This document shows positions 10,897 to 38,737 of a DNA stretch of 40,000 nt, in pieces. Below the pieces are notes generated by a model, which saw nothing but the letters and a program-made list of their open reading frames with translations, searched no databases and had not been told where the DNA came from. The position numbers were made by a program, and so were the translations under genes. Origin of the DNA: Solirubrobacter soli DSM 22325 (GTDB lineage Bacteria; Actinomycetota; Thermoleophilia; Solirubrobacterales; Solirubrobacteraceae); assembly GCF_000423665.1 (NCBI RefSeq), contig NZ_AUIK01000001.1, forward strand, positions 360,669-400,668, in the 5' to 3' direction. Numbering within the stretch: position 1 is the first letter of the stretch; every line of letters starts with the position of its first letter.

Positions 10897-11256
10897 CGGT
10901 TCAGGTGCATTGCTTGGTGATCGCCGAGCGTGATGACGGCCTCGTCACGCGCTCCGTGCTGCGCTCGCGAGCCTGACTGCTCGGTCCGAGAAATCGGCGT
11001 GGTCGCCGACAGCAGGGGCGAACTCTGCCGCGCTGCGACGACTAGAAGCGTGATCCTCGCACTTCAGCCACAATCTTCGAAGTTTCCAGAGCCGTGGCTC
11101 AACTCGCACAGCCGACTGGCGTGCCGCGCACCGGTTTTCCGCTCCATGCGGGATGAACCCTCCACGCGACCCCCGATCCGTCCGCTCCCCCTCGTACGGT
11201 GCTTGCTCGTGACTGGTCCTGACGCCCGTAGCCACGATCTGACGCTGGAACCGCTG

Positions 11257-11472
11257 ATGTCAGTTGATGACGTCGCGAAGTTCCTCCGGATCTCAGAAAG
11301 CGGCGTCTACCGCCTCACGCGAAGCGGCGAACTGCCGCGGGTCAAGGTTGGGAATCGCACGGTGTTCGACCCCGCCGACGTACGCAACTTCGTCGCGTCG
11401 CGTCGATGCGTGGGGTCGTCTGGCACCGGAACATTCGATGGGAAGACGTCGGGAGGCGTAGGCGATGAGTGA
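11257..11472 (+). CDS. small excisionase/MerR-like HTH (HTH_17-type) DNA-binding protein
   Basis: 71 aa from the ATG at 11257. '[46 protein letters not shown]' matches the 'lt..eaA..lgvs..tvyrl...G.lp..k.G.r..f....l..f' pattern. The 3-prime end overlaps the queC start by 8 nt. Confidence 0.75.
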
Positions 11473-12169
11473 TCGGAACGCAGTCGTGCTGCTCAGCGGG
11501 GGACTCGACTCCGCCACCGTCCTCGCGATCGCGCAGGACGAAGGCTACGTCGTGAACGCCCTCTCGTTCAGCTATGGACAGCGTCACAGCGTCGAACTCG
11601 ATGCGGCGAAGACGATCGCGACGCGTGCGGGCGTCACTCGCCATGTCGTGGCCGATATCGATCTCCGGACGTTCGGCGGTTCCGCGCTCACGTCCGAGAT
11701 CGAGGTGCCCAAGGGGCGCAGTGACGAGCAGATGGGCGAAGACATTCCGGTGACGTACGTTCCCGCTCGCAACACCATCTTCTTGTCGTTTGCGCTCGCG
11801 TACGCAGAAGTGTCGTCGGCCGACCACGTCTTCATTGGGGTCAACGCCCTCGATTACAGCGGATATCCCGATTGCCGGCCCGAATACATCGAAGCCTTCG
11901 AGCGCATGGCAAACCTGGCGACACGGCGCGGCGTCGAGGGCCACGGCCTCACGATCCATGCCCCCCTCCAACACCTCACCAAGGCCGAAATCATCAAGCG
12001 AGGCGTCGAACTCGGGGTGGACTACAGCCTGACCCTTAGCTGCTACGACCCCGCGCCGGACGGTGCATCCTGCGGAACGTGCGACGCTTGCTCCCTGCGT
12101 CTCCGCGGGTTCGCTGAGAACGGTCTCGATGACCCAGCGGCGTATGTTGCTCAGCGAGAAGCTGCATGA
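11465..12169 (+). CDS. queC: 7-cyano-7-deazaguanine (preQ0) synthase QueC
   Basis: 234 aa. It has the PP-loop '[12 protein letters not shown]', the string 'SFSYGQRH', and the C-terminal Zn cluster '[21 protein letters not shown]'. Confidence 0.93.
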
Positions 12170-12927
12170 CGGCGCCTACGACGCTGACACCGCGGGGCCA
12201 CGTCCGCGAGAAGACGTTTCCGATCATTGAGATCTTCGGCCCGACGATCCAGGGCGAGGGCGCGGAGGCGGGACTTCCCACGCACTTCGTTCGACTCGGC
12301 GGATGCGATTACCGCTGCTCGTGGTGCGACACGATGTACGCGGTCGATCCGGAGACAGTCAGGGCGACTGCGGTCTCGATGTCTTCGGACGGTATCGCGG
12401 AGCGAGTAGACCAACTTTCTGGACGACCGGACTGGGTCGCGATCAGCGGAGGGAACCCCGCTCTCCATCAACTCGACGGTCTCGTGGAACTTCTTCACGC
12501 CAGGGGATACCGGGTGTCCGTCGAAACGCAAGGCTCGCTTTGGCGAGATTGGCTTCACATGGTCGACCGTCTCACGATCTCCCCCAAGCCTCCAAGCTCC
12601 GGGATGTCATCCCCAAAGCATCTCGATCAGTTCAGCCGTTTCATGCGTCGCGCCATCGCGCGCAAGGACGTGCCCGCGGTGCTGAAGATCGTCTGCTTCG
12701 ACGACGTCGACCTCGACTGGGCGACGGAGCGCGCTGCCGAGTACCCAGATCTCCCGCTGTTCCTGTCCGCTGGCACGCCGGTGCCGGCAGTAGACGGTCT
12801 CCGCGACGCCGTAGGCATTCGCTATCGGTGGCTGTGCGAGCGGGTCGCCGAATCGCCCGCACTCTCAGCCGCTCGGGTTCTTCCACAGCTGCACGTCATC
12901 GCTTGGGAAGGAGCGAAAGGCGTATGA
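12166..12927 (+). CDS. queE: 7-carboxy-7-deazaguanine synthase QueE (radical SAM)
   Basis: 253 aa. '[34 protein letters not shown]' contains the Cx3Cx2C radical-SAM cluster. There is an ATGA overlap with queC at 12166-12169. Confidence 0.92.
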
Positions 12928-13358
12928 ACCCGATCACTGCTGATCTGCATCAGGCCCGCCCCGCAAACGGGAGCGGATCGCCTGTCCGAACGCGCACGGA
13001 AATCTTCAAGGAGTTCACGTTCGAGGCAGCTCATCGCCTGCCGTTCGTCCCAGCCGAGCACAAGTGCTCACGGCTACACGGACACAGCTTCAGCGTCGAG
13101 ATCCATGTCTCCGGAGAGGTCGATCCCCGAACGGGGTGGCTGATGGACTTCGCGGACATCAAGACAGCCTTCAAACCATTGCTCGATCGGCTCGATCACT
13201 ACTACCTCAACGAGATCGACGGGCTCGAGAATCCGACGAGCGAGAACCTCGCTCAGTGGATCTGGGAGCGGCTCCAGCCGGCCCTTCCGGAGCTCAGCAA
13301 GATCGTCGTTCGCGAGACGTGCACCTCCGGGTGCGTTTACGTGGGGGGCGAGGCGTGA
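12924..13358 (+). CDS. queD: 6-carboxy-5,6,7,8-tetrahydropterin synthase QueD
   Basis: 144 aa from the ATG at 12924 (ATGA overlap with queE). The strings '[10 protein letters not shown]', '[15 protein letters not shown]' and 'DHYYLNEI' are present. Confidence 0.92.
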
Positions 13359-14152
13359 ATCCGCTCGCAGCCCTCGACCTAGAAGACGTCCAGAATCAAA
13401 CCGACGACCGCGGAGTCGCGATCGACCAGGTCGGGATCGCGGATCTGCGGGTGCCGCTCCGTGTCGCTGGCCGAGACGGCAGCGTCCAACAGACGATCGG
13501 GACCATCGAGATGGACGTGGACCTCGCGGCCGAGGTGAAGGGCACGCATATGAGCCGCTTCGTCGAGGCGCTCGTCGAACAAAACGGCCCGCTCGATGGA
13601 CCCGCGGTCGTCGCACTTGTCCACGATGTTCGAAGCCGGCTCGGCAGTACCCGAGCTCGGGTCAGTATGCGCTTCCCGTACTTCCTCAGCCGCTCAGCTC
13701 CGGTCACGGGTTTCGCCGCACCGGTCGACTACGACGGCACACTTCTCGCCGAAGCCGGACCTGTCACATCGCTCACGCTTGGCGTCCGGGTCCCGATCAC
13801 GAGTCTTTGCCCTTGCAGCAAGGAGATCAGCGACTACGGCGCCCACAACCAACGCGGCTACGTCGAGATACAGGTTCGGAGCGACGGCGAGTCGGACTTG
13901 TGGCTCGAAGACCTGATCGATATTGCGGAGGCGGCTGGCTCAGCCCCGATCTTCGCGCTGCTCAAGCGACAGGACGAGCGGCACGTGACGATGCAGGCGT
14001 ACGAGACGCCCGCCTTCGTCGAGGACATCGCCCGAGATGTCGCCGTAGCGCTTCGCAGCGACGCACGAATCGCCGGCTACGTCGTCCGAGTGACCAATCA
14101 CGAAAGCATCCACAATCACTCGGCCGTGGCCACGATCCGAGGCGGCGTGTGA
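13355..14152 (+). CDS. folE2: GTP cyclohydrolase I type 2 (FolE2/MptA family)
   Basis: 265 aa from the GTG at 13355 (GTGA overlap with queD). The strings 'GTHMSRF', '[23 protein letters not shown]' and '[12 protein letters not shown]' are present. Confidence 0.9.
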
Positions 14153-14796
14153 GCGAAGTGGTCAGGCGCGTCCACGTCGTGACGTCGTGCACCGCCCTCA
14201 AAGTCGACACGCGAGTTCCGGTGCCCGCTGAGACCCTCTATCGCGGCCAGCAGCACGTGCGCTTGATGCGCGGGGTGCAACGAGCTCGTGCCTTAGGCGT
14301 CCAGATCGATCTCTCGATCGTGTCCGCGAAGCATGGCGTGATCGCCGGCGACGCCCCCGTCGAGAGCTACGAACAGACGTTTCAAGGCATGGGCGTCGAG
14401 GCGCGCAGAAGTGTCGCTCGCACGCTCGGAATTCCACAAGCAATCCGGACGTCGCTAGACCATCCCTGCGATTTGCACGTCGTGCTTCTTGGGGATGACT
14501 ATCTCGCAGCGTGCGAGCTAGGAGCGGATGTCGCTCCTTCCGCCCCCACGCACCTGTTTTGTGCTGCCGGGTCGGCCCTGGGACTGCCGCGCATGTCCAA
14601 CGTTGCGATCTGGCCCATTCACGTCGAGGACACACGACGCTTCCAGTGCGGATACGTGGCGCTCAAGGGAGAGGTGGGTGGTCGACTTCTAGCGACGCTC
14701 GCCACAGGGCGTCTGTCGTTGGCTGAACTGACGTCCGATCCACTGGCCAAACTGGCATCGGCTGAACGTGATCAACTCGCGCTCTCCGTGGGATGA
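14149..14796 (+). CDS. dpdC: DpdC-like protein (assignment by position and size; candidate preQ0-DNA to ADG-DNA converting enzyme)
   Basis: 215 aa from the GTG at 14149 (GTGA overlap with folE2), located between the preQ0 genes and dpdA. 'VVTSCTALK...PAETLYRGQQ...IVSAKHGVIAGDAPVESYEQTF' resembles the YaaA/DUF328-like 'LSGLYGvl.p.d.i.pYrlem' core. Family membership was not verified. Confidence 0.5.
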   Translation: MSEVVRRVHVVTSCTALKVDTRVPVPAETLYRGQQHVRLMRGVQRARALGVQIDLSIVSAKHGVIAGDAPVESYEQTFQGMGVEARRSVARTLGIPQAIRTSLDHPCDLHVVLLGDDYLAACELGADVAPSAPTHLFCAAGSALGLPRMSNVAIWPIHVEDTRRFQCGYVALKGEVGGRLLATLATGRLSLAELTSDPLAKLASAERDQLALSVG

Positions 14797-16060
14797 CATT
14801 GTGCGCTTCTATTTCCCCGACAGCCAAGACCAGGTCGATCCGAGTTTCGACTTCCTCACTGAAGAGCGTTCGCCGTTCAGGATTCGGCAGCGCGACGACC
14901 TATACGCGCACGAGGTGCTCGATCCTGTCCCGTACACCGGCATGCTTGTCTCGAAGGCGATGGTCGACGGTGTCGATGGCGGCGCCGGCCGATACAGCGC
15001 CCAGCAACGGCAGCGGCTCTATCGAGTCGGGATCCGTGAGTTCTTTCGACTTAACACCCCGGATCGGGCGCACATCGAAACGATGGGCGACTGCGGCGCG
15101 TTTACCTACGTTCGCGAAGACGTGCCCCCGTACAGCGTCGACGATGTCATCGATTTCTATGAAGGCTGCGGATTCGACGCCGGCATTTCCCTCGACCACG
15201 TCATTCTCGGGTTCGAACTGCACGCGCCGCTAAGCGCGGATTTCGTTCCTGAGGACTGGTCTCAGCGCCGGGAACTGACGTTGCAACTCGCTGCGGACTT
15301 CCTCCGTCGCCACGCTGAACGTGGCTGCTCATTTCAGCCGGTAGGCGTTGCGCAGGGATGGAGTCCCGAGTCGTACGCGGCGTCCGTCGAGGCACTGCAG
15401 AAGATCGGCTACGGCCGGATCGCGCTCGGCGGGATGGTGGCGCAGAAGACCCACGAGATCCTCGCCGTGCTGCACGACATCGACGAGATCCGAGATCCGG
15501 CGACCGAACTCCATCTGCTCGGGATCACGAGAACCGAAAGCATCCCGGAGTTCGCCTCTTACGGAGTCACGAGTTTCGACAGTACGTCCCCGTTCCGTCA
15601 GGCGTTCAAGGACGATCGGGACAACTACCACGCCGACGAACGGACTTTTCTCGCGCTGCGCGTGCCGCAAGCCGAAGGAAACGTGAAGCTGCAGCGACGT
15701 ATTCGGGCCGGCGAGGTCGACGGCGCCCTTGCGCGGCGCCTCGAGCGTCGCGCGCTGGACACGCTCCGCTCGTTCGATGCGGGTCGCGCTACCGTCGATG
15801 ACGCGGTCGAGGTCCTGCGCGACTACGAGCGATTGCACGACGGTAAGCGAGATCGCTCGCACGCCTACCGCGAAGTGCTCGAGAGCGCACCGTGGAAGTC
15901 CTGCGAGTGCGCCGTCTGCCGCAGCGAATCGATCGAGGTAATCATCTTCCGCGGGACGGAACGCAACAAGCGGCGCGGATTCCACAACCTGACCGTCTTC
16001 GCGCGACGACTCGAGCGTCAGCTCGGGCAACCCGAGTCCCTGGTCCCGGCGGGAGCATGA
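14768..16060 (+). CDS. dpdA: DpdA, tRNA-guanine-transglycosylase-like DNA transglycosylase (TgtA5 type)
   Basis: 430 aa from the GTG at 14768. An in-frame GTG at 14801, 5 nt after the upstream stop, is an equally good start. The strings 'FYFPDSQDQVDPSFDF', 'MGDCGAFTY', 'ISLDH', 'IALGGM' and 'TSFDSTSP' are present, with the TGT-type Zn site 'CECAVCRS...x22...FHN'. Confidence 0.88.
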   Translation: MINSRSPWDDIVRFYFPDSQDQVDPSFDFLTEERSPFRIRQRDDLYAHEVLDPVPYTGMLVSKAMVDGVDGGAGRYSAQQRQRLYRVGIREFFRLNTPDRAHIETMGDCGAFTYVREDVPPYSVDDVIDFYEGCGFDAGISLDHVILGFELHAPLSADFVPEDWSQRRELTLQLAADFLRRHAERGCSFQPVGVAQGWSPESYAASVEALQKIGYGRIALGGMVAQKTHEILAVLHDIDEIRDPATELHLLGITRTESIPEFASYGVTSFDSTSPFRQAFKDDRDNYHADERTFLALRVPQAEGNVKLQRRIRAGEVDGALARRLERRALDTLRSFDAGRATVDDAVEVLRDYERLHDGKRDRSHAYREVLESAPWKSCECAVCRSESIEVIIFRGTERNKRRGFHNLTVFARRLERQLGQPESLVPAGA

Positions 16061-17211
16061 TGCCCAAATCCAAGAAGTCGCGCGCCGAGTTTCGAGTCCC
16101 CGCGCTCGCGATCGAGCAAACCAAGGGACGTACGCTGTACAGCTTCGCCGTCGACGGCAAAGCGCTTCCTGCGTTCGCTGCGGTGTCGCGTGTCAAGCGC
16201 GAGGCGAATCACGAGCTCGCTGGCTATCAGCGCGCAGAGTCCGTCGCGCACATCCGCACGATTCGGAAATACCTCGAGTCGGCGGACGCGATGTTGCCAA
16301 ATGCGCTTGTCGTGGCCTTCGACTCGAGCGTTCGATTCGAGAGCGACGACTCGGACGATGCGCAGACCAGGGTCGGGCATCTCGTGATTCCGATTATTGA
16401 AGGAGCCACTGAAGCCGAGAAGCCGGGATGGATCGTTGACGGTCAGCAGCGCACTGCCGCGATTCGCGAGGCGGAGATCGAGGATTTCCCGGTCTACGTC
16501 ACAGCGTTCGTCACGGACAGCGTCGCCGAGCAACGCTCGCAGTTCATCCTCGTCAACTCGACTAAGCCCTTGCCCAAGGGTCTTATCCACGAGCTCCTGC
16601 CTGCGACGCCAATCGGGGATCTCCCCCTCCTGCTGCTGAAGAAGCGCTACCCGGCCGTTCTACTCGATCGGCTGAATTACGACCCCGACTCGCCGCTCAA
16701 TCGTCGCATCCGGACACCCACGACGACCGAAGGAACGATCAAAGACAACTCGGTCCTTCGCATGCTCTCGATGAGCATCGAAGACGGCGCGCTGTATCAG
16801 TGGTTCGATCCGGAGAGCGGGACTGGCGACACGGACGCGATGTTGACGCTCGTCAAGAACTTCTGGCATGCGGTCGCGAGTGCCTTCCCGGACGCCTGGG
16901 ATCAATCGCCGCGCCGGTCTCGACTGGTCCACGGCGTGGGAATCGTCGCACTCGGGTCGGTCATGGACGAGATCGCGTACAACCTCCGCGAGGAGGGCGT
17001 CCCAACGGCGCGTCGCTTCGAGGAGCAACTCGCGCTGATCGAACCCCTGTGCAGGTGGACGCGCGGAATCTGGGATTTCGCTCCAGACGATCAGCGCCGG
17101 TGGAACGAACTGCAAAACACCCCCCGCGATATCAAGTTGCTGAGCGACTACTTGGCTCGTGCGTACCGGCGGGAGGCGACCGGTTCAACCAACATTGCCG
17201 CCGCGGCTTGA
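16057..17211 (+). CDS. dpdB: DpdB, DGQHR/DndB-family ParB-like (ATPase) partner of DpdA
   Basis: 384 aa from the ATG at 16057 (ATGA overlap with dpdA). The strings 'LAGYQRAESVAHIRTIRKYL', 'GWIVDGQQRTAAI' and 'QFILVNSTKPLPKGL' are present. Confidence 0.85.
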   Translation: MMPKSKKSRAEFRVPALAIEQTKGRTLYSFAVDGKALPAFAAVSRVKREANHELAGYQRAESVAHIRTIRKYLESADAMLPNALVVAFDSSVRFESDDSDDAQTRVGHLVIPIIEGATEAEKPGWIVDGQQRTAAIREAEIEDFPVYVTAFVTDSVAEQRSQFILVNSTKPLPKGLIHELLPATPIGDLPLLLLKKRYPAVLLDRLNYDPDSPLNRRIRTPTTTEGTIKDNSVLRMLSMSIEDGALYQWFDPESGTGDTDAMLTLVKNFWHAVASAFPDAWDQSPRRSRLVHGVGIVALGSVMDEIAYNLREEGVPTARRFEEQLALIEPLCRWTRGIWDFAPDDQRRWNELQNTPRDIKLLSDYLARAYRREATGSTNIAAAA

Positions 17212-17524
17212 CTCGACGGACCCAGGCTTCGTTGCCTACCTACGAGCCGAACTCGAGGAGCGACTTGAACAACTCGCCGTCGAGCGCGCGAGAATTCAGC
17301 GAGCGCTCAAGGTACTGGCCGACCCGATCGCACCGACGCCGATCGACGACCAAGTCCTCATGGCTGTCGCGGCCGCGCCCGGATCTCGCGGGTCGTTGAT
17401 CGCGCTGTCACTCAATGACAGTGCGGAAACCGTCGCGCGTGTCTTAGACGAACTCGCCGCGCGGGGCCTCGTCGAACGGAACCGGCTCGGCTGGGTGCCT
17501 CGACGCGTGTCGAGAGATACTTAG
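17159..17524 (+). CDS. small coiled-coil plus winged-helix (MarR/ArsR-like) protein; start uncertain
   Basis: Up to 121 aa. Candidate starts are GTG 17159, TTG 17195 and ATG 17360. The helical string 'FVAYLRAELEERLEQLAVERARIQRALKVL' is followed by the wHTH-like 'SLNDSAETVARVLDELAARGLVERNRLGWVP'. The stop TAG at 17522-17524 overlaps the convergent gene's TAA at 17521-17523. Confidence 0.55.
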   Translation: MRTGGRRPVQPTLPPRLDSTDPGFVAYLRAELEERLEQLAVERARIQRALKVLADPIAPTPIDDQVLMAVAAAPGSRGSLIALSLNDSAETVARVLDELAARGLVERNRLGWVPRRVSRDT

Positions 17525-19710
17525 GCGAGAGAGCCCGCGGCGATCTCTCTTTCGACAGCCTCGACGATCCTCGTGCTCCCCTTGAACGCATGACGAATCA
17601 TTGGCCGCTCTGGAGGCCGATGAGCGTCAATGGCGTCAGTGGCAGAATGCTTGGCGCTCCCGATCGCAACCACGAGAAGGTCGACGGAACGAACCATGCT
17701 GACCAGACCCTCCGAGGCGACCTTGTCCTCCCGGTGGACCACATTCAAGCCGGGGTGCCGTCGCGTCAGTCGGTCGCGAGCACGCGCTGCAACCTGTGGA
17801 CTCAACGAATAGATGCCAACGACGCGCCCTTGCCCAACGACAGCGGTTTCATGATCTTCGACCGCCTCTATGGCGTCGAACTCGATGTCCGAGTGCAGTG
17901 CGTCGCTCGTGATCTGCAGGCCTTCACGGACCTCGTCTGGTAGCGCGCGCACACCCAGCGGACCGACACCCGTAACAAACGTGCCGAGAAGCCGCGTCCG
18001 GTCGCCTGGGTGAAACTCGAGCATTTCCATCGTGTCCGCAAACCACGAGGCGTGGCGGCGCGATGCCATCCGTGCCCAGATCATGTCGAGAGCGTCGAGC
18101 ATCTGTCCGTACGCCGTTGCTGTTGGTCCTGCCGCGAGCACCCGCGAGACAAGGTCCCCGGTGAGTTCTAGCCCTGCCGCTTCCCATCCCGGCATCAGCG
18201 CGAGCGACTCGAGCATCGCCATGTGCACGCGTGCGACGCTAGAAGCAGGGGCATCACTGCGATCAAGCCACGACAGGAACGCCGGAAGCCCTGCCAGCAA
18301 CACGCCGCTGGCCGAACTGTCGGCGAGTTCTGCGATGAGCGCGATGGTCTCGTCGAACGCCTTAGTGTCGGCAGCATCGCGGGCGTCGAACTCGAGCTCA
18401 CCACATTCAGCAACGGCCTCTGCCGTCGACCATTGGGGGTCGCCGGCGAGTCGGGCAAACCAATCTCGCCACGTTCGAGGTGGCGGAGGATCAGTCGCCG
18501 CCCCGACGAGCGACTCGAGGGCGTCGAGAGCGTCGCGCACGACGCGGCGCTGACATGCGAGGTGGCGGGCCCGTTCGTCCAACCGGCGCCAGTACGCGAT
18601 CGCGCGAGTTGCCGCCTCGAGCGTTCCCAACTCGTAAGCAGCAAGGAGAATCACGTCCGCGAGGTCGTGGCTGTTCGGCGATTCGACGGCTTCGGCCAGC
18701 GCGATGTCATACGACCCCTGCTCAAACGCCGACAGCGGCGATTCCCGAACCGTTTCGGTTTGACTCGCGTACTGTCTCGCGAGCGCGTCGACCCAAAGCT
18801 TGTCCTCGGCGCTCTCGAGCCACTCTGACATCGCGAGTACTTGGGCACCGTTTTGCCCGACCACGAGAGCGTGGAGCGCGTGGAGCTTTAGAAAGGCTGG
18901 AGAACGCAGCGGCCCGCGCACGCGGGCGAGGTCATCCAACACGTCGCGACGGCGAACATATTCGCTGATGGCCCCAGGGACATCTCCGGCAACTTGAAAC
19001 GGGTCGAAGTAAACATGCTGTGCCGCCGCGGCAAGGGCCTCAGTTACTCGCCAGGGTCGGCGAATCCGACAGAGGTCGTCAAAGTCCGGGTGTGCGGCCA
19101 GTTCGCGCCACCGACTTTGCGCTCCCAGCGCGAGGACCTCGATAAACCGGACGTTTTCAACGCTGATCGACCCGCGCTGGCGAAGATCCTGAAGCAACTC
19201 GAGAGCGAGATGCCCGTCGCCGGCGGCCAAGCTCAGATCGATCTCTCGCAGGATGGCCGTCGTTCCGTGCGGCATCCCCACTCGCGGCGCGGGTCGCTCT
19301 GCCCAGAGCGCCAGCAGGCGCTGAAGCGGCGTCCAGAGCGCTTCGAACTCATTCTGGTTCTCAGTAAAGAACCGGACGTACCGACCGTCGGTGGTCTTAC
19401 GGACGAGGGACTCGATCGCGTCTGTTTCCGCTTCAGGGGCATCGTGAGGCACGATCCAACGCGCGTAGGTTGGCCCGATCGATCCCTTCACGTCCTCCGT
19501 TGCGCGACGGAACCCATCGTCGTCAAACGCCAGCAGGTACCAGATCACCCGCTTGGAATCGAGAAGCATTCGCGGAAGCACCGCTGGACGTCGGAACTCC
19601 TCATCGAACGCGTTGACCAAGGCACGAAGCCGAGGTCGGCTATCGACCTCTCGCCGCCCGAGGCGATTCCCTTCGCCGAAGAACGCGTCCAGAAACTCTC
19701 GAGATGTCAC
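17521..19710 (-). CDS. dpdD: 729-aa protein, last gene of the restriction operon; DpdD-like by elimination, with a DUF2325-like C-terminal domain
   Basis: The GTG start at 19710 forms a GTGA overlap with the PLD gene. No catalytic motif was recognised in the first ~620 aa. The C-terminal ~100 aa 'VVGIYSLSPQVAARARDRL...NVVHREDKVASEGLVSMVRSVDLLVVAIGSAKHSATDAI' fits the DUF2325 pattern (..h.G......l...i...D.vvv.t...sH.a...). Confidence 0.45.
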   Translation of the reverse strand: MTSREFLDAFFGEGNRLGRREVDSRPRLRALVNAFDEEFRRPAVLPRMLLDSKRVIWYLLAFDDDGFRRATEDVKGSIGPTYARWIVPHDAPEAETDAIESLVRKTTDGRYVRFFTENQNEFEALWTPLQRLLALWAERPAPRVGMPHGTTAILREIDLSLAAGDGHLALELLQDLRQRGSISVENVRFIEVLALGAQSRWRELAAHPDFDDLCRIRRPWRVTEALAAAAQHVYFDPFQVAGDVPGAISEYVRRRDVLDDLARVRGPLRSPAFLKLHALHALVVGQNGAQVLAMSEWLESAEDKLWVDALARQYASQTETVRESPLSAFEQGSYDIALAEAVESPNSHDLADVILLAAYELGTLEAATRAIAYWRRLDERARHLACQRRVVRDALDALESLVGAATDPPPPRTWRDWFARLAGDPQWSTAEAVAECGELEFDARDAADTKAFDETIALIAELADSSASGVLLAGLPAFLSWLDRSDAPASSVARVHMAMLESLALMPGWEAAGLELTGDLVSRVLAAGPTATAYGQMLDALDMIWARMASRRHASWFADTMEMLEFHPGDRTRLLGTFVTGVGPLGVRALPDEVREGLQITSDALHSDIEFDAIEAVEDHETAVVGQGRVVGIYSLSPQVAARARDRLTRRHPGLNVVHREDKVASEGLVSMVRSVDLLVVAIGSAKHSATDAIDAHRPPERPMIRHAFKGSTRIVEAVEREIAAGSLA

Positions 19711-28300: not shown

Positions 28301-28355
28301 GGTATCCGCGAAATGGTTCCGTGACCGACGTGCGTTGAATCCGTTCCGTCGACAT
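25320..28355 (-). CDS. dpdH: DpdH-like large P-loop NTPase
   Basis: 1011 aa from the ATG at 28355 (TGATG junction); the track ORF extends to 28379. Walker A is 'VPIIGASGSGKSHLVLWL' and the Walker-B-like string is 'RLLLMIEDFTLLQG'. Confidence 0.7.
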   Translation of the reverse strand: MSTERIQRTSVTEPFRGYRCWDSISVQAVLDREAASASPEVLLATHVPPPIRRVRPRLGGFVDQGMVDQSELLDVVQNPPDESLIVPIIGASGSGKSHLVLWLREMLRRQNDPDRRIIYVPKSDTSLSGVIELLLEGRVGGRFDELRESVHRASESMDDRERAIRLRNELALALGQSPPTDAVRDWVAKEMPALLHDAGYLDKVVGDGGAFNRIVVEAVQGGTDAQAEFLPDDVRPDLSLTEVDALGEQAKRFWRQLQNPQVIDAAVALLNHHRDKALSKVFGVAPMELVRVMRDLRQLLLEENPRQRLLLMIEDFTLLQGIQFDLLEAMIEIPRGVGRADIAPMTTVMAVTDGFFAQVLTSSDTLRTRIAAQGHIYSLDAIAGDSDGTRAAFDPSRVRQFVGGYLNAVRVTKADLESAHPLIPNACEVCAHRETCHDAFGTDDDGRGLYPFNAIAVDRAMRSRGREFNARDALAVLNLTLGAHGQDIADGRFPSEQWEREFPVSGQQGTLPTLSLDVDRRARATQKGEQRARLLTFWGGVPETLGNLAPGIHEAFGVPPIDGAVEVEPEVEIPTGAETTSRATKFARDDIGDAVRRWRDGTSSMGETHALVVRRFVGEAILGCLDPEARLLSKAVVDSAFRPDTDVAIERAGHGGSSRPTGRFRAEINADEDGVFLVEGILRAHDPRAPAGERLKRSRWSYPGATDHLAALTHFASTQAALLARHLQQRSLLERPQREHALQALYLSGLVLGLGDARTADGRLTAIFSTKEGTRTHGPEEWQVLVTRLEERRASLRSTVTSYSQVRQGDRGGELGLSTNDVIKLLQQTNSTTGLPESDGDPAYRDVRLLLESRLSPALDTAHDQLFAWHAVVRPALGDPGAWPTTARALAQADADLRADSYPMNLGRVVEEMPAPRDVTAALDNIGSLLASWSAMDSIERARRVGTVPWARLAPIRTYAERFATELSRARERALAAVSDEPASLTPLDELEGSLERLEQRLADLVRNVQR

Positions 28356-29227
28356 CAGCGAATCACTCCTCCGACCCAACGAATCGCATGATATGCCCCG
28401 GCCTCGTCGGCGAAGGTGACCTTTCCCGCGTCCCCCAATCCCTCGTCGAGGGCGATTAGTCCCTCGCGTCGAAGCCGGATCAAGGCGAAACTCAACGATG
28501 AAGAGATGTCGCCGTCTGAGTTCGCGAGATGGCGTTCGGCCAATTGTGCGCGCCAGCTTCCAGTGTCGAGCATTGGTAGGCGTTCGCCGAGGGCCCGCAC
28601 GACGGCCTCAACTGATTGCGGACCTTTGCCGCGAAGAAGTTCCGCCATGACGGGACGTACCGCGATGGACGGGTCGGGGATAAGCGCATTCGCGCCGAAC
28701 GGGAAGGCGAATCCCAAGTACGGCGCCCAGCGCAGAAACTGATTCCATCGAGTGGGGTTCCGGATGACCTTGATTGGGAGTTCGTCCGACTGCTTCTGAC
28801 CAATCGCGTGCGGTCCGTCCCACGACCACGGTGCGTCCTTCACCGACAGGGTCAAGAACCACGTGAGCGACCGAGCCACGTCGATTCCGCCCAGCAAGCC
28901 GACTTCGCCTTCCTCGTCCTCCCAGAAATCACGGCTGCTCGCATCTTCGATGATGGATTGAAGAACAACACGCCGCATCCCGCCTGGCTCAAGACCACCA
29001 GGAACATCGTCGCGGATCGTCAGTGCCTCGTCTCTTTCGACGACGGCTCCGACAGCCCTTAGCTCGTTCAGTGTTGTCACGACCGGGGTTTCGCGCGTGG
29101 CGGGAAGCCCCGGTCGTAGTCGACTGATCAAGGACTCAGCCTTCAATCGCTTTCCCGGCGCTCCGAGCAAGGTCTGATGAATCGCTTCGGCGGCAGCGGG
29201 AAGACGACCGGTTTGGTTGAACGCCAT
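28355..29227 (-). CDS. dpdG: DpdG-like hypothetical protein (290 aa)
   Basis: The ATG at 29227 sits in a TGATG junction. No motif was recognised. The assignment rests on size and position between the RecQ-like helicase and the P-loop ATPase. Confidence 0.5.
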   Translation of the reverse strand: MAFNQTGRLPAAAEAIHQTLLGAPGKRLKAESLISRLRPGLPATRETPVVTTLNELRAVGAVVERDEALTIRDDVPGGLEPGGMRRVVLQSIIEDASSRDFWEDEEGEVGLLGGIDVARSLTWFLTLSVKDAPWSWDGPHAIGQKQSDELPIKVIRNPTRWNQFLRWAPYLGFAFPFGANALIPDPSIAVRPVMAELLRGKGPQSVEAVVRALGERLPMLDTGSWRAQLAERHLANSDGDISSSLSFALIRLRREGLIALDEGLGDAGKVTFADEAGAYHAIRWVGGVIR

Positions 29228-31785
29228 CAGGTCTGCTGAAGGAAGTGCTCGATACGAGCGACGTTGGAGTGGTAGCGCTCGACAAGTTCGCGACCGTGCC
29301 GCGGATCGATCGCCGATTGGTCGACAATGATGACGCGAGGAGGCCCGATTGCGTCGAGCAGGTATGGCTCGGGGTCATTCCGAAGACGCACCACCGCGGT
29401 CGGGAGACTAGGCGCGTTCCACGGCAACCAATCTGGTTCATCGAACACCACACCGTGGGGCGCCAGACGATGGAGGTCGACGAACTCTCCCTTCATGTGC
29501 CCGGAGTCGAGCACCCACAGTCCTCGCGCCGCCAGCGTCCGAATCGCTTGCCTAACGGTGGCGTCATCTCTCGGGTCCGCGAGGAGCACGAGGGGTTCGC
29601 GGACGGTCATGGACGAGAGCCAACTCGCGCGCCATCCGTGATGGTCCCCGCCGATCGTACAGCGAGGCGTCGGGTACTCAAGTTGGCGCGGGGCGCAGCC
29701 AAGCCGGCGGCATCCAGGACAGCCACCGCATGACTGCGCCACGACAATCGGCAACTCGATGTCCATCGACGGAATTGGCCGGTCGATGACGTACGTCGAC
29801 CGAAGCAAGGCGCAGATTCGCGCGTGTCGCTGTAGGGCGCCCCGCATGGCCGCGTGCGCCGCCTCGTCTTCCGAGTGAGCCCGATCCCGAACCGAGACGA
29901 CCGCGGACGCCCACAATTCGTTGTCGTCAGTTGATCGACGAAGGTGGACCACAGCGCTCGCTGTGTGCTCTTCGAAGGCACTGTCTGCACGCGCGGCCCA
30001 GGTATCCTCGTCTTCACCGGACTGTCGTCGTGGTGGTGCCTGAGACTCGAGCGATAACACGCCGGCGCGGTGGAGCAGCAGCAACGTGCGGAGGTTCCAC
30101 GCGCGATTCCTGTCGGAGTCGATCTCGAGGTCTGACGGCATGGCGGTGAGGGGTATTCGCATGCGACCCTCCGGAAGAGGAGTTCGCTCGGCGAGCATCG
30201 CATCCCATCGTTCGCGTCCGCGGTCGATCGAAATGATCTTGCGCCGCGAGAGTTCTCGGGCAACCTGCAGGTCGGTGTTCGAAGCGATCATCATTGCGAC
30301 GGAAGGCTCGCCATCACGCCCGCCGCGACCAACTTCTTGATACCAGCGGTCGAGTGTCTCGGGCACGCACGCGTGCACTACCGACCTCACATCGGGTTGA
30401 TCCACGCCGAGTCCGAACGCGGACGTGGCGATGACTAGGTCCAACGATTGGTCCCGCAACCGATCGATCGCCGCCCGTCGCTCGGCGGCGGAACTCCGGC
30501 CCGTGACGACGTGGGACCGCCGCCAGCCGAGTTCGAACAGGTCCCGCTGAAGCTCACGGGCATCAACGACCTTGGTCGTATATACGATCGCTGGACGAGG
30601 TAGGTGCCGCAGCGCGTCAATGACGCGTCGCCGCCGCTGGTCAGAGTCGCCGACCAGGCTGACCCAGTAGCTGGGCTCGTGTCGGAGCGCGGCCGAGGAG
30701 ACGACGGTGGTCGGTCCTGGGTTCCCGAAAAGCACACCGAGGACGTCGAGACTGTCCTGCGTGATCGTGGCGCTCAGGAGAACGGTCTGAAACGGCTGCC
30801 GACCATTGGCTCGGCACACCGCGAGCAAGTCCTCCCGCAACCCTGCTATGGCCTGAAACGCCGGGCGGAATTCCGCGCCCCACTGAGCCACGACGTGAGC
30901 CTCGTCGACGACGAACGCATTCAAGAGTCCTCGCTCCGCCGCGAGATACAGCGCAGAACTCAAGCCTGATGCGACTGCCTCAGGGCTCACGAACACGATG
31001 CCCTGGGAACCGTCGGCTACGCCGGAACGGATGTCGCGCTTGGCCTCGTCAGTCAACTCTGCGTGATAAGCGAGCTCGAGAGGAAACGCTCGCGCGTCAG
31101 TCCGGTTCGCAACCAAGTCCGCAAACGCACGGGACTGGTCGAGGGCGAGTGAGGTAGTTGGAATTACGAAGACCGTGGTGCCTCGAGCCTTCGTCAACGC
31201 CTGCATGTAGCCGACCGTGCTCTTGCCGGACCCCGTGGGTAAGTTCGCGACAAGAGTTGCTCCGGGGACGGCAGATGCAGCCCACCGGATCGCAGCCCGC
31301 TGCCCGAGTGAACGGTAGCTGCGCCTTCCAGTGGCTTCTCTGAAGAACCCGTCAGCTCGTAGATTCTCCGACTCGCGATGCGTGTGCTCATTGCTACCGC
31401 GGAATGCAGCCGCGGCAGGATCCTGTTGGCCGTCAAGCCAGTCGGGACGCCAGGGGTTCGCCTGCACACGTAGGCGCTCTGCGTCAGTACCCACGACGTC
31501 AAATCCGAACAGCCTCCATTCAGCGGCGGTCGGCCAAGGCTGGGCAATCGGAGTGGCCAGGTTGAACAGGGTCTGTGTCATCTCGGTCTCCGCCCGAGCG
31601 ACGTGTCTCAATAGAACGGCGAGGTCCGCGGCGCCCACGGAAGCCGTATCGCCGGCAGCCGCCCGCATCGCCAGCAGGAGCCGCCGAGCACTCGCAGAGA
31701 GAGTCGCTGGCAAGGGCGAATCTTCAGGCCATCTTGCCAGCGCGTTACGGACTGAGGCGAGATCGCCTGGGTTCAACCCGGGCAT
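29227..31785 (-). CDS. dpdF: DpdF-like RecQ-type DEAH helicase
   Basis: 852 aa from the ATG at 31785 (TGATG junction); the track ORF extends to 31824. Motif I is 'NLPTGSGKST'. The RecQ signature is 'FVVDEAHVVAQWGAEFRPAF'. 'LLSATIT', 'ATSAFGLGVDQPDVRSVVH' and 'YQEVGRGGRDG' are present, with the C-terminal Cys cluster 'SCGGCPGCRRLGC'. Confidence 0.8.
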   Translation of the reverse strand: MPGLNPGDLASVRNALARWPEDSPLPATLSASARRLLLAMRAAAGDTASVGAADLAVLLRHVARAETEMTQTLFNLATPIAQPWPTAAEWRLFGFDVVGTDAERLRVQANPWRPDWLDGQQDPAAAAFRGSNEHTHRESENLRADGFFREATGRRSYRSLGQRAAIRWAASAVPGATLVANLPTGSGKSTVGYMQALTKARGTTVFVIPTTSLALDQSRAFADLVANRTDARAFPLELAYHAELTDEAKRDIRSGVADGSQGIVFVSPEAVASGLSSALYLAAERGLLNAFVVDEAHVVAQWGAEFRPAFQAIAGLREDLLAVCRANGRQPFQTVLLSATITQDSLDVLGVLFGNPGPTTVVSSAALRHEPSYWVSLVGDSDQRRRRVIDALRHLPRPAIVYTTKVVDARELQRDLFELGWRRSHVVTGRSSAAERRAAIDRLRDQSLDLVIATSAFGLGVDQPDVRSVVHACVPETLDRWYQEVGRGGRDGEPSVAMMIASNTDLQVARELSRRKIISIDRGRERWDAMLAERTPLPEGRMRIPLTAMPSDLEIDSDRNRAWNLRTLLLLHRAGVLSLESQAPPRRQSGEDEDTWAARADSAFEEHTASAVVHLRRSTDDNELWASAVVSVRDRAHSEDEAAHAAMRGALQRHARICALLRSTYVIDRPIPSMDIELPIVVAQSCGGCPGCRRLGCAPRQLEYPTPRCTIGGDHHGWRASWLSSMTVREPLVLLADPRDDATVRQAIRTLAARGLWVLDSGHMKGEFVDLHRLAPHGVVFDEPDWLPWNAPSLPTAVVRLRNDPEPYLLDAIGPPRVIIVDQSAIDPRHGRELVERYHSNVARIEHFLQQT

Positions 31786-34700
31786 CAGTCGTCTTCGACT
31801 ATGAGTAGCGCCACGCTGCTCCATCTCGCAACCGGCGCTCGCAGAGCGGCGAGTAGGGCATCGTCGACCCGTGCTGCCACGTCTGCCGCACGACCCGCCG
31901 CTTCCTCGCCGCGACGATGTCGCAGCCGCAGACGTGCGACTCGTTCGCCCCAGGCAATCCTTGCCTGCGCCGTCGCGGACTCGATGTCGCCGCTGGCGTG
32001 GCTCCGCTCCACGGCGACATTCGGCGCACGTCTCCGAACCGTGGCGAAGTACTCATTCGCGGTCGTTGCGCCCAGGAGAGCGCCGAGGTCGCGAGTGCTC
32101 TCAGACGTCCACTCGCTGGTCGCTTCTGGATCGGCGAGTTGTCTCTCCAGTACCTCGATCCATTCTCGGTCTGTGATCACTTCCGCGTTCTCGTCGAACC
32201 ACAGCGTTAGGGCTTGAGGCGGCAGGAACGCGTCGACGCGGCGCTGCAATGCCGCAACGGCAAGAGCCGCGTCGGCATCGGTCCGGACCTCTCCGCGATT
32301 CGGGCGTTCGCGTTCGGCATGCTGCCACGCGTCGAGAGCATCGGTCGGATCCGCGGCGACCACAAAATCCGCGCGCACCGCTGCGGTCGCGGTTGTGCCT
32401 CTCATACGCGCAACAAAAAGTTGGCAAGACTCGTCCCAGTCGGCCTGCTCTCGCAGCAGTTCCACGATCGGGTCCCCCGGCAACATCAGCGCCGCGTCCT
32501 GCCCATCAACCGCACGCACACGTGACGAAGTCCACGTCCCTCCGCCTGGCCTACAAAGAGCGCGGAAGTCTGCCGTAGCGCTCGTGGTCCGGCCGACGGT
32601 CACACCGACCGTGATCCCGTCGCCGAGTCCGAGCTTCAGGTCGAGCGCCGGCCCCACCACCTCGCTTAGCTCGCACGAGGCGTCCAGCAGAGAGGTCGCA
32701 TGTGACGTCTCAGCGTCGATGACTCGATCGATGAAGTCGTCACTGCGAAGGTCCGTCTGGGCCAGCAGATCGAACTCGTCGAGTCGGTCGATCCGGCGCT
32801 GTTCCTCCTCGACCTTAAGGCGCAACGCACCTACGGCGTCTTCAGCCCCGCCATTCGGAAGACCATCGAGGAACCACGCCCTGCGTTGCTCCATCTCCAC
32901 GGCCTCGATCGCAAACATCGTCGAGGACGTCGAAGCCCGAAAGACGCCAAACACGTCGCTCAGGAGCGCCAGCCACGCTTCCGCGAATCCTTCGTTCGAC
33001 CACATGAACACTCGACACTGAACAGGCCCCGCAACGCCGCCGTGCCGATCCGCGCGCCCGATGCGCTGCTCCACGCGACTCGTCGCTCGTGGGAGGTCCG
33101 CGTGGACGACCGTAGTGGCATTCTGCAGATTCAGTCCCTCCTCCGCTGAGGCATCGCACACGAGCGTCGCGATGATGCCGTCCCGGAAGGCAGTCAGCAC
33201 CCCCCGGCGTTCGTCTCGGTTCAGATCAGCAGTGAGCGCTTCGACGCCTCCAGGGGACAAGACCATCAGCTCGTCGCACAGGAGTTGGGCGGTCGACGCC
33301 GCGGAAGTAAAAACGACTGTCGGCCCGTCACACGCGCTGGCAACTGCGCGAGCGAGTACGCGAATCTCGGCGGCCTCGTCGGGATTGCCCTCGAAGTCGC
33401 GTTCGGGCTCGAGAAGTCGGATCACTTCGTCCAAAGCCTCTCGGATCTCCGGTGTCGTTTCGACCGCTTTCAAGGCGCCGCGGGCCGCGAGATCGATGCC
33501 TGACCGCGCGAGATGCTGGCGCCGAAGAGTCGTCTTATAGAGCGCTGCGTGACGGAGGCACTGCAAATCGCCGGTCGACGCCTGCACGAAGCACCAGAAC
33601 GCCTCGGCGTAGATGCTGATCCATTCCTCGCCGCGGTCATTTGCCGCACTCACGAGAGCCGCCCGCAAGTTCTCAAGCCATCGTTCGACTTGAGGGCGCC
33701 TCGGGTCCGCCTCAAAGACTGCCGGCGCGAGAGATCGGCCCCGAACGTCGTACAGCTTTCCAGCGATGCCAGCCCGTCGGTTGCGGATGAGGCGCGCATG
33801 AATGCGATACGAGTCCGTCAGGTGCCCACGGACCTCGGCAAGGCCGAGTTCGCGGGATCCATTCTCCGCACCGACATCGATCACTGAAATCAAGGCACCC
33901 AATTCCCGATCCTCAGGGAAGTTCTCTCGGATGTCGCTGAGCGCTCCATCGAGGAGAAACGGTGGTGTATCTGGACCGATCGAAAGGAAAAGTCGCCCGA
34001 TTTCTTCACGCCGGCGAACCTTCGCTTCGAAAGCTTCAAAGTCGTCGAGACGAAACGTGTCGGGATCGAGAAGGTGGAGCATCGCGAGCAGATCCCTCTC
34101 GCGATTCAAAACCGGCGTAGCGCTGAGGAGCAACACCCGTGCTGCTTCGTCGGTCAACTTCTGGGCAAGCGCGTACCGCTCGGCTTCCTCTTTGACCCGA
34201 GAACCCCAGCCGGCAGCGATCCTGTGGGCCTCGTCGATCACGACGAGGTCCGGGACCTGCAAACGCTTCCAGGACCGGTCGTCCTCGTGGGCGGCGACCT
34301 CGATCCCACCTTGTCGGAACCAATGGAGCCCGAGTCGATCCTCGAGTTCATCTTGCCATTGAGGAACCAGTTGCGATGGAACCAAGACGACAACCGTCGA
34401 ACGCGGAGCGTCAATCAATCGCTGGCGAATGAGAAGCCCCGCCTCGATCGTCTTGCCGAGGCCGACCTCGTCGGCAAGCAGGTAGCGCTGCACAGGGTCG
34501 TCCAGTACTCGGCGCACAACGTCGAGCTGGTGCGGGAACAAAGACACCGGCGCCGAGAGCACGCCCGACAAACCGCGCTGCGCGGCTTTCAGCTTGTAGT
34601 AGCCGGCTAGGAATGCCCGCCGCTTCTCGGTCGCGTCGCGGTCACCGGCGAACCCGGCCGACAACAGCGCAAGCGGATCTCGCACGGGACCAAAGTCACG

Positions 34701-35558
34701 CACCCGCACGGCGTCTTTCTCGACGCGTCGGATCGCGCGGCCGGGTCCGACCGTGACGTGCGAATCCGACGCGCTATTTACCGCGCCGCGCGACCAGCCT
34801 TCTCCGACGTCCTCCCACCACACGATGTCGCCGCGAACAAGCGCGTGAGAGCTCGCCGTCTTCGACGGGATCCGCACAACTTCGACGTCATTCCCTGGTC
34901 CGCGGAAGACCTCCACGTCGTAGGACTGGCCCACGGTTTCTTTGATGCGCCCCACATGGGAGGCCGGCGTATGAAATACGACATCCTGTTTCGCGTCGTA
35001 TCGCGGCATTGCAGCACTAGCGTCTGTACCTTGCGCACGCCCTCCGCACGCGCGGCACCGCTTCCAAAAGTCGCCCTCGTCGCCGCGGTTGCGCCGCAAC
35101 CACCGGACGGCGTCGCGTTCGTCTGACGCGTAGCGCAGGCTGACGTACTGGCCCACGGCCCCCAACCACTTGCACCCGGAGGCGTGCAAGACACTGGTTC
35201 GCTCGGTGTCTCGCGCGTAGTGGTCAACCAGAACGACTCCTCCCTGGGCGCGAATCGCGCTCAGATCCTGTCGCCGGAACTGTCGGAAGGTGCTGTCGTC
35301 AACCAAAGCGGGCATAGCTCTCAACTCGTCCTGCGCGCCGCGGTTCACGGCTCGCGGCACCACATCATCATGCCTGAGTGATCGGACTGTCCAACCCGGA
35401 CCTCCATCCCACAAACGTGCGATTAGTCTCTCGACAGAAACAAGCGCGGCAACCCAACGTTCGTCCAGTCTCCAGCAGCCAGCTGTGGGAAATCTGTTCA
35501 TAGCGATATCGCATGCGGACCAACGCTTTGTCGTTCGTATCCCTACGGTGCGCAGCAA
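31785..35558 (-). CDS. dpdE: DpdE-like SNF2/RapA-type helicase, first gene of the restriction operon
   Basis: 1257 aa from the TTG at 35558, or 1238 aa from the ATG at 35501. The strings 'LFPHQLDVVRRVL', 'LLADEVGLGKTIEAG', 'LVVIDEAHRIA', 'LLLSATPVLN' and 'GLNLQNATTVVHADLPRATSRVEQRIGRADRHG' are present. The region before the ATPase core looks Tudor/SH3-like. Confidence 0.8.
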   Translation of the reverse strand: MLRTVGIRTTKRWSACDIAMNRFPTAGCWRLDERWVAALVSVERLIARLWDGGPGWTVRSLRHDDVVPRAVNRGAQDELRAMPALVDDSTFRQFRRQDLSAIRAQGGVVLVDHYARDTERTSVLHASGCKWLGAVGQYVSLRYASDERDAVRWLRRNRGDEGDFWKRCRACGGRAQGTDASAAMPRYDAKQDVVFHTPASHVGRIKETVGQSYDVEVFRGPGNDVEVVRIPSKTASSHALVRGDIVWWEDVGEGWSRGAVNSASDSHVTVGPGRAIRRVEKDAVRVRDFGPVRDPLALLSAGFAGDRDATEKRRAFLAGYYKLKAAQRGLSGVLSAPVSLFPHQLDVVRRVLDDPVQRYLLADEVGLGKTIEAGLLIRQRLIDAPRSTVVVLVPSQLVPQWQDELEDRLGLHWFRQGGIEVAAHEDDRSWKRLQVPDLVVIDEAHRIAAGWGSRVKEEAERYALAQKLTDEAARVLLLSATPVLNRERDLLAMLHLLDPDTFRLDDFEAFEAKVRRREEIGRLFLSIGPDTPPFLLDGALSDIRENFPEDRELGALISVIDVGAENGSRELGLAEVRGHLTDSYRIHARLIRNRRAGIAGKLYDVRGRSLAPAVFEADPRRPQVERWLENLRAALVSAANDRGEEWISIYAEAFWCFVQASTGDLQCLRHAALYKTTLRRQHLARSGIDLAARGALKAVETTPEIREALDEVIRLLEPERDFEGNPDEAAEIRVLARAVASACDGPTVVFTSAASTAQLLCDELMVLSPGGVEALTADLNRDERRGVLTAFRDGIIATLVCDASAEEGLNLQNATTVVHADLPRATSRVEQRIGRADRHGGVAGPVQCRVFMWSNEGFAEAWLALLSDVFGVFRASTSSTMFAIEAVEMEQRRAWFLDGLPNGGAEDAVGALRLKVEEEQRRIDRLDEFDLLAQTDLRSDDFIDRVIDAETSHATSLLDASCELSEVVGPALDLKLGLGDGITVGVTVGRTTSATADFRALCRPGGGTWTSSRVRAVDGQDAALMLPGDPIVELLREQADWDESCQLFVARMRGTTATAAVRADFVVAADPTDALDAWQHAERERPNRGEVRTDADAALAVAALQRRVDAFLPPQALTLWFDENAEVITDREWIEVLERQLADPEATSEWTSESTRDLGALLGATTANEYFATVRRRAPNVAVERSHASGDIESATAQARIAWGERVARLRLRHRRGEEAAGRAADVAARVDDALLAALRAPVARWSSVALLIVEDD

Positions 35559-38664: not shown

Positions 38665-38737
<73 letters not shown>

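Follow-up and report, generated by a model that had tools for sequence, protein, structure and literature searches.

We analysed a stretch of 40,000 nucleotides of the genome of Solirubrobacter soli DSM 22325 (the window; positions 360,669 to 400,668 of contig NZ_AUIK01000001.1) that holds, between positions 11257 and 35009, a full Dpd island, i.e., a system of DNA modification with 7-deazaguanine and of restriction, with all the described genes present and intact. A modification operon on the plus strand faces a restriction operon on the minus strand, and beyond the latter lie two genes encoding a protein with a DGQHR motif and an HNH nuclease. The NCBIfam equivalog cut-offs are exceeded by 13 genes: those of DpdA, B, D, E, F, G, H, J, and K and those of QueC, QueE, QueD, and FolE2. 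Gene models were built from a listing of open reading frames (ORFs) and from family searches, along with an independent gene call on an identical Logan contig; these agree for the nine plus-strand genes. A first-pass annotation had proposed a Dpd-type system, and the matches of the ORFs to the DpdA-K families, above the equivalog cut-offs and weaker for DpdI and the DpdC-like protein, bear it out. That annotation also regarded the system as known, and RefSeq indeed already uses Dpd names in S. soli: among six proteins looked up, four are labelled ‘tRNA-guanine transglycosylase DpdA’ (WP_028062152.1), ‘DGQHR domain-containing protein DpdB’, ‘protein DpdD’, and ‘protein DpdG’. Since the NCBI pipeline already labels genes in this genome, the Dpd call in itself adds nothing new, and, apart from the adjoining DGQHR/HNH pair, the island is a typical one. 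To place it among its relatives, we used a scan of species-representative genomes, which gave 418 loci with relatives of DpdA, 80 of them compared with the window proteins by tblastn, and a scan of metagenomes, which gave eight loci.

The modification operon comprises nine coupled genes, joined mostly by overlaps of 4 nucleotides: HTH_17, queC, queE, queD, folE2, a DUF6884 gene, dpdA, dpdB, and a winged helix-turn-helix (wHTH) gene. It had been recognised as an overlapping operon, with seven genes; the HTH_17 gene in fact leads it, the wHTH gene ends it, and the biosynthetic genes follow the order queC-queE-queD-folE2. The de novo pathway to 7-cyano-7-deazaguanine (preQ0) is complete, with FolE2, QueD, QueE, and QueC all above their equivalog cut-offs. 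The preQ0 synthase gene queC (11465-12169, plus strand; TIGR00364, 215 bits, cut-off 150) encodes the SGGLDS loop and a C-terminal Cys cluster, and queE (12166-12927, plus strand; TIGR03365, 260 bits, cut-off 206) encodes a radical-SAM 7-carboxy-7-deazaguanine synthase with the motif CDYRCSWC. They are followed by queD, for a 6-carboxytetrahydropterin synthase (12924-13358, plus strand; TIGR03367, 113 bits, cut-off 89; the 144-residue gene call is concordant), and by folE2, for GTP cyclohydrolase IB (13355-14152, plus strand; NF010200, 267 bits, cut-off 215).

Small genes with helix-turn-helix (HTH) domains stand at both ends of the operon. The first one (11257-11472, plus strand) encodes a 71-residue HTH_17 protein of the excisionase/MerR type (PF12728, E = 1.5e-13), overlaps queC by 8 nucleotides, and occupies the same slot in 10 related cassettes. 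Two metagenomic loci (L006, 7134-8075; L007, 6978-8021) have it as a fusion with QueC. Its recurrence in the cassettes of at least 11 loci, two of them with this fusion, leads us to take it as a component of the cassette and to reject its reading as an excisionase: it is the conserved first gene of the preQ0-dpdA cassette and probably a regulator of the modification operon. There is also a weak similarity between this protein and the MAD1 HTH from the MADS defence system. The last gene (17195-17524, plus strand) encodes a 109-residue wHTH protein with weak HTH matches of the MarR_2/TrmB type, and a 34% identical counterpart follows dpdB in two other loci (L003 and L004). We considered whether it could be a split-off C-terminal domain of DpdC and rejected this, as there is no similarity. 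Its stop overlaps by 4 nucleotides that of the convergent dpdD (17521-19710, minus strand), so that terminators cannot fit between the two operons.

The DNA-guanine transglycosylase gene dpdA (14801-16060, plus strand) scores 582 bits with NF041059 (cut-off 200), and its product aligns over the full length with the crystal structure of S. Montevideo DpdA (PDB 7UI4, E = 7.5e-126), in agreement with its earlier description as a protein resembling tRNA-guanine transglycosylase (TGT) with a CxCxxC...H zinc site (here CECAVC...FHN). We took the active-site residues from published work (PMC10164549), in which Asp95 is the general acid/base and Asp256 the nucleophile. Residues D97, D132, D260, F101, L240, and F269 of the window protein correspond to D95, D130, D256, F99, L236, and F265 of 7UI4, and Gly206/207 and the CxCxxC...H site are likewise kept. 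His181 of 7UI4 is replaced by Gln, which is a common variation (Q in 59 and H in 10 of 69 related loci). The next gene, dpdB (16057-17211, plus strand), overlaps dpdA by 4 nucleotides and encodes its ParB/DndB-like ATPase partner (NF041060, 468 bits, cut-off 300). The DGQQR motif by which it had been identified is present, as it is in Enterobacter DpdB. The roles of DpdA, DpdB, and DpdC have been shown in vitro (PMC10164549).

The gene between folE2 and dpdA (14149-14796, plus strand) encodes a 215-residue DUF6884 protein (PF21818, 33.5 bits, cut-off 30). A small dpdC-like ORF had been anticipated after dpdB; the only ORF with similarity to DpdC is in fact this one, a remote homologue, and it lies in the slot upstream of dpdA that dpdC occupies in Enterobacter (L002) and Escherichia coli (L101). 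BLASTP aligns the protein with DpdC of the Enterobacter plasmid pPOL9A at 26% identity over 140 residues. In a comparison of profiles, hhalign matches the 59-member DUF6884 family to Enterobacter DpdC with 95% probability (E = 3.5e-8) over 167 columns, which span residues 3-199 of the 283 residues of the latter and include the conserved blocks LY.G, SAG.G, PY..TF, and DY..A. Seven columns are invariant in the 59 homologues. The AlphaFold2 model of the protein has high confidence (pLDDT 94.5); a Foldseek search of the PDB gave no convincing neighbour (best template-modelling score 0.49), and the model matches only viral or phage DUF6884 models and YaaA models. The literature describes DpdC as DUF328-like (PMC5699537) and equates dpdC with DUF6884 (PMC12235509). 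To judge from these profiles, the protein is a remote and shortened homologue of DpdC. On a plasmid of Allocoleopsis franciscana PCC 7113 (L096, 753-2849), a 698-residue protein annotated as ‘DpdA’ has its DpdA domain preceded by a DUF6884-like region at the N-terminus and is thus an apparent DpdC-DpdA fusion.

The restriction operon, convergent with the modification operon, is transcribed in the order dpdE, F, G, H, I, J, K, D. DpdD, E, F, G, H, J, and K score above the equivalog cut-offs, align end to end with their models, and follow the canonical order. The helicase and nuclease motifs reported before are all there: DEAH in DpdE and DpdF, DEVH in DpdJ, a Walker A in DpdH, and a single HKD in DpdK. 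The operon starts with dpdE, encoding an SNF2-family DEAH helicase (31785-35009, minus strand, as all that follow; NF041062, 689 bits, cut-off 500; likely start at the ATG at 35009), and continues with dpdF, for a RecQ-like DEAH helicase (29227-31785; NF041063, 775 bits, cut-off 550), dpdG (28355-29227; NF041064, 133 bits, cut-off 80; RefSeq ‘protein DpdG’), and dpdH, for a P-loop NTPase with the Walker A GASGSGKS (25320-28355; NF041065, 542 bits, cut-off 450). Downstream of dpdI, dpdJ encodes a YprA-like DEVH helicase (20240-24607; NF041067, 1450 bits, cut-off 800), for which a start at the ATG at 24607 agrees with the 1455-residue gene call. Then come dpdK, encoding a phospholipase-D-family (PLD) nuclease with a single HKD motif, HEKGLLGD (HxKx4D) (19707-20243; NF041068, 197 bits, cut-off 100), and dpdD (17521-19710; NF041061, 396 bits, cut-off 300; RefSeq ‘protein DpdD’). 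The intervening dpdI (24604-25323) was assigned mainly by position and size, given its weak similarity: the 239-residue protein occupies the same slot as DpdI in the E. coli locus and aligns end to end with NF041066, at 21 bits for a cut-off of 150, and there is no match to the PADLOC DpdI model. RefSeq likely under-annotates this gene, which it carries as a 200-residue ‘hypothetical protein’. After re-examination of the start codons, all junctions in the operon are overlaps of 1 or 4 nucleotides.

The eight genes of this operon had been correctly counted in the first-pass annotation, in which one of them was read as a displaced dpdD and the total length was given as 18.2 kb. The order E-F-G-H-I-J-K-D is however the standard one, also found in E. 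coli GE3 and in Enterobacter pPOL9A, and the length depends on the start of dpdE. The first 183 codons of the longest dpdE ORF (35010-35558) are shared by no relative and lack the codon-position pattern in guanine-plus-cytosine (GC) content of the rest of the gene; the match to the DpdE model and all relatives begin near residues 166-215 of this ORF. As these leading codons are unmatched and without a coding pattern, the gene most likely starts at 35009 and not at 35558, and so the operon spans ~17.5 kb. The gap between the likely starts of dpdE and of the DGQHR gene (35010-35894) is roughly 810-885 bp long, depending on the start of the latter. It contains one weak promoter-like site. Terminators, repeats, RNA families, conserved ORFs, and an operator in common with the other promoter region were not found, and a comparison of 101 loci revealed no conservation. 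The long ORFs that enter the gap from both sides look like artefacts of high GC, and we took the gap to be non-coding.

Beyond this gap and divergent from dpdE, a gene (35895-37244, plus strand) encodes a second DGQHR protein, DndB/ParB-like, of 449-474 residues (TIGR03187, 76 bits, cut-off 59). It is distinct from DpdB, whose model it matches with 70 bits against a cut-off of 300. We found 252 homologues at E ≤1e-5, and the DGQHR motif is invariant in the 36 that were aligned. The next gene (37241-38086, plus strand) overlaps it by 4 nucleotides and encodes a 281-residue HNH nuclease (PF01844, E = 2.7e-10) in which C137, C140, D173, H174, N188, C193, C196, and N197 are invariant among 46 homologues, including the metal-binding Cys and the catalytic His and Asn. 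Its AlphaFold2 model (pLDDT 93) has a helical N-terminal domain, for which Foldseek gave no convincing neighbour in the PDB, and an HNH core that resembles the Gme HNH nickase. No sequence relatives of either protein were found in the PDB, the viral contigs contained no relatives of the DGQHR protein, and our searches of the literature gave no description of the pair, even if extra copies of dpdB are frequent and HNH genes occasional in dpd islands (PMC12235509). The HNH gene is carried by RefSeq as a 96-residue ‘hypothetical protein’, which is another likely case of under-annotation.

We studied 15 other loci with a relative of the DGQHR protein at ≥40% identity, with up to 10 kb of flank each. 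The HNH gene is adjacent in 13 of them. In every locus whose context reaches at least 4.5 kb, dpdA, a TGT gene, or dpdJ/K occurs no farther than 10 kb away; such loci include those of Streptomyces fungicidicus, Mycolicibacterium mucogenicum, Prescottella equi, metagenome-assembled genomes of Acidimicrobiales and Solirubrobacteraceae, and the archaeon Halorussus litoreus. The placement and orientation of the pair relative to the dpd genes vary among loci. Two islands (L029 and L102) consist of just the modification cassette and the pair, with one extra DndB-like gene in L102, and lie beside housekeeping genes; no DpdD-K gene is within reach there, and the pair is the sole candidate nuclease seen. 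Two further loci (L043 and L090) probably have the same composition. In H. litoreus (L100, 17305-21386), the pair is 6-9 kb from genes for a TGT-like protein, a BrxC/AAA_22 protein, and a 967-residue protein with a weak DUF6884 match, and this locus may belong to the Dpd-like systems of haloarchaea (BRIGADE).

Among the 80 loci, we could distinguish two types of modification cassette. The type of the window, HTH_17-queC-queE-queD-folE2-DUF6884-dpdA-dpdB, is found in at least 11 other loci. The other one, common in Micromonospora, Nonomuraea, and their relatives, has a second DpdB-like gene in the place of the DUF6884 gene. In most actinomycete relatives (within L009-L087, e.g., L011, L022, L037), the gene directly upstream of dpdA encodes a DpdB-like DGQHR protein with ~39% identity. 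The partners of the cassette vary from locus to locus: some have DpdD-K, two (L003 and L004) have a DndB/DUF87/AAA/SLFN-PLD set, and two (L005 and L006) have only genes of mobile elements. In L003 (13548-19680) and L004 (4695-10827), the five genes found instead of DpdD-K encode a DndB-like protein, a protein without assignment, a DUF87 protein, an AAA_16 protein, and a SLFN_AlbA_2+PLD protein; they may be another alternative restriction module. Genes for preQ0 synthesis have been reported in ~27% of dpd islands (PMC12235509).

The genes discussed above coincide with a stretch of low GC (~0.63 against 0.70-0.72 in the flanks of the window) that extends from ~10.9 kb to ~38 kb. Its right-hand edge is a tRNA-Thr(GGT) gene (38665-38737, minus strand) identified by ARAGORN and by Rfam (67.9 bits), the only RNA family found in the Rfam scan of the window. 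The flanks encode a molybdopterin oxidoreductase, a TetR regulator, a short-chain dehydrogenase, a DAO oxidoreductase, and a 1459-residue protein with no confident domain match. Mobile islands integrated at tRNA genes have an integrase and a direct repeat of the tRNA 3’ end. Here, the family scans of the window proteins revealed no integrase domain, no repeat ≥11 nucleotides of the tRNA-Thr region was found near the left border in the search for attachment sites, and what we observe is the drop in GC and the adjacency to the tRNA gene. At its borders (10900-11256 and 38087-38737), the island thus abuts tRNA-Thr with neither an integrase nor a duplicated tRNA end.

The identities of the genes, their intact catalytic motifs, the coupling within operons, and the conserved linkage are direct observations. 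From them, we conclude with high confidence that this ~27-kb region of S. soli is a horizontally acquired island encoding a Dpd restriction-modification system, with the DGQHR/HNH pair as an extra module. By analogy with the work on Salmonella, FolE2, QueD, QueE, and QueC would make preQ0 from GTP, and DpdA, driven by the DpdB ATPase, would exchange guanines in the cell’s own DNA for preQ0. The products of dpdE-F-G-H-I-J-K-D (three helicases, a P-loop NTPase, a PLD nuclease, and three proteins without motifs) would then attack unmarked DNA. We infer the remaining steps—the final base, the role of the regulators, and the function of the pair—from the genes: the modified nucleoside dADG probably arises through hydration of the nitrile by the DpdC-like protein, the leading HTH_17 and trailing wHTH proteins probably regulate the modification operon, and the DGQHR and HNH proteins would constitute a further nuclease module, compact and linked to the same mark.

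Some observations weigh against parts of this scheme. The mobility of the island is unsupported because neither integrase nor attachment repeat was found, and the score of DpdI is far below its cut-off. This divergence, together with the copies of the cassette without DpdD-K on mobile elements (L005 and L006), would fit a decayed or inactive restriction arm, with the island acting as an anti-restriction element that only modifies DNA. We find this improbable, since all eight ORFs are full length, with end-to-end alignments to their models and intact catalytic motifs, and retain their tight coupling by 1 or 4 nucleotides. The final product is less certain. The PADLOC DpdC models match the DUF6884 protein with E = 4e-4 only, and the last ~85 residues of canonical DpdC have no counterpart in it. 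As the protein is short and remote, the product may be dADG, dPreQ0, or another derivative. If it were not a working equivalent of DpdC, the island would stop at dPreQ0 or make something different, as may be suspected from the fact that not every validated dpd island yields dADG (PMC12235509) and from the many related actinobacterial cassettes with a second DpdB-like gene, and no DUF6884 gene, in this slot. Yet the homology extends over ~167 columns with the four conserved blocks, the gene is translationally coupled to both folE2 and dpdA, and seven columns of the family alignment are invariant. We regard an end product short of or other than dADG as rather unlikely. It is, on the other hand, very improbable that the preQ0 genes supply the synthesis of tRNA queuosine or of a deazapurine secondary metabolite and neighbour dpd only by chance. 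PreQ0 is a common precursor of queuosine, archaeosine, and toyocamycin-type products (PMC5699537), but here the four genes overlap each other and the dpdC-like gene, itself coupled to dpdA, by 4 nucleotides in one operon, the same eight-gene cassette recurs in other loci, family scans revealed no tgt, queA, queF, queG, or tailoring enzymes in the window, and, as mentioned above, about a quarter of dpd islands contain such genes.

The same caution applies to the DGQHR/HNH pair. It was found in only 3 of the 80 DpdA-anchored loci, and is thus an optional accessory, which could be an independent pair of defence genes. It might, for example, be a split Type IV enzyme, GmrSD-like, that cuts foreign modified DNA and has no tie to 7-deazaguanine: a ParB-like DGQHR NTPase with a His-Me nuclease is the design of GmrSD, SspE, and BrxU (PMC4619093, PMC9646914), and defence genes tend to cluster in islands. 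This explanation seems unlikely to us because every relative with usable context is within 10 kb of dpdA, TGT, or dpdJ/K, from Streptomyces to a haloarchaeon, a linkage that appears much tighter than mere co-residence in a defence island predicts. It also fits poorly with the islands made only of the modification cassette and the pair (and one DndB-like gene in L102) amid housekeeping genes, and a Type IV enzyme directed against deazaguanine DNA would be toxic to the cell when encoded beside its own modification cassette. A nuclease in this position is most sensibly the restriction partner for that mark, and the conserved linkage suggests that the DGQHR/HNH pair acts as a second, compact restriction module. 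We propose more tentatively, as a possibility short of our preferred conclusions, that it is an unnamed Dpd component: a two-protein effector that would read 7-deazaguanine marks, could replace the eight-protein DpdD-K, and would be the base-modification counterpart of SspE. The islands with just the modification cassette and the pair (L029, L102, and probably L043 and L090) favour this view.

The locus is of use mainly as a compact natural example of a path from GTP to modified DNA within one operon, accompanied by two adjacent candidate restriction modules. Should the pair prove to restrict unmarked DNA, it would be a far simpler system than DpdD-K in which to study how a nuclease senses the sparse 7-deazaguanine mark, a question that the literature lists as open for Dpd. 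The first-pass annotation placed the edge of the system at 35558, which excludes the pair (up to 38086) in spite of its linkage to dpd genes in other genomes; the interest for follow-up lies in these Dpd-linked genes just beyond the coordinates given at the time.

The comparison with known systems shows how much of the island is shared. Like the systems of Salmonella Montevideo and E. coli, that of the window has DpdA, DpdB, and a DpdC-type gene just upstream of dpdA, with the catalytic residues and zinc site of DpdA and the DGQQR of DpdB, even if the proteins are only 23-49% identical. The gene order of S. Montevideo was compared indirectly, via the E. coli and Enterobacter records. In E. coli GE3 (L101, in the leuX island), one of 159 E. 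coli genomes with near-identical dpdA-dpdB DNA, the order is C-A-B-E-F-G-H-I-J-K-D, so that dpdE to dpdD follow each other as in the window. The restriction operon is co-directional there, whereas it is convergent in the window; queD alone is nearby, whereas the window operon includes the full preQ0 pathway; and the DpdC-type protein has 283 residues instead of 215. The window adds the two small HTH genes and the DGQHR/HNH pair, and its island lies by tRNA-Thr and lacks an integrase; the E. coli island lies by tRNA-Leu and has one. The Enterobacter cloacae plasmid pPOL9A (L002) has a layout identical to that of the window, with C-A-B facing D-K-J-I-H-G-F-E, and its DpdA is the best plasmid match to the window DpdA (48.5% identity). 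It differs by the absence of preQ0 genes, HTH genes, and the DGQHR/HNH pair and by having a canonical DpdC (PADLOC, E = 6e-142). Among actinobacteria, Kineococcus radiotolerans has a dpd island and DNA that has been found to contain both dADG and dPreQ0 (PMC12235509, PMC5699537); its locus is outside the 80 that we compared and is known here from the literature.

The closest parallels for the pair are the enzymes of the SspE/GmrSD family, which also associate a ParB-like DGQHR NTPase with a His-Me/HNH nuclease. In SspE, the phosphorothioate mark of the host directs the nicking of invading DNA (PMC9646914). Members of this family are defined by DUF262 and DUF1524 in a single polypeptide, whereas for the pair Pfam at E 0.01 gives only DndB and HNH/HNH_5, in two separate genes and with no match to DUF262 or DUF1524, and the mark would be a base instead of a backbone sulphur. 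The DGQHR/HNH pair would thus, at most and by analogy, work like the GmrSD/SspE enzymes, without being one of them.

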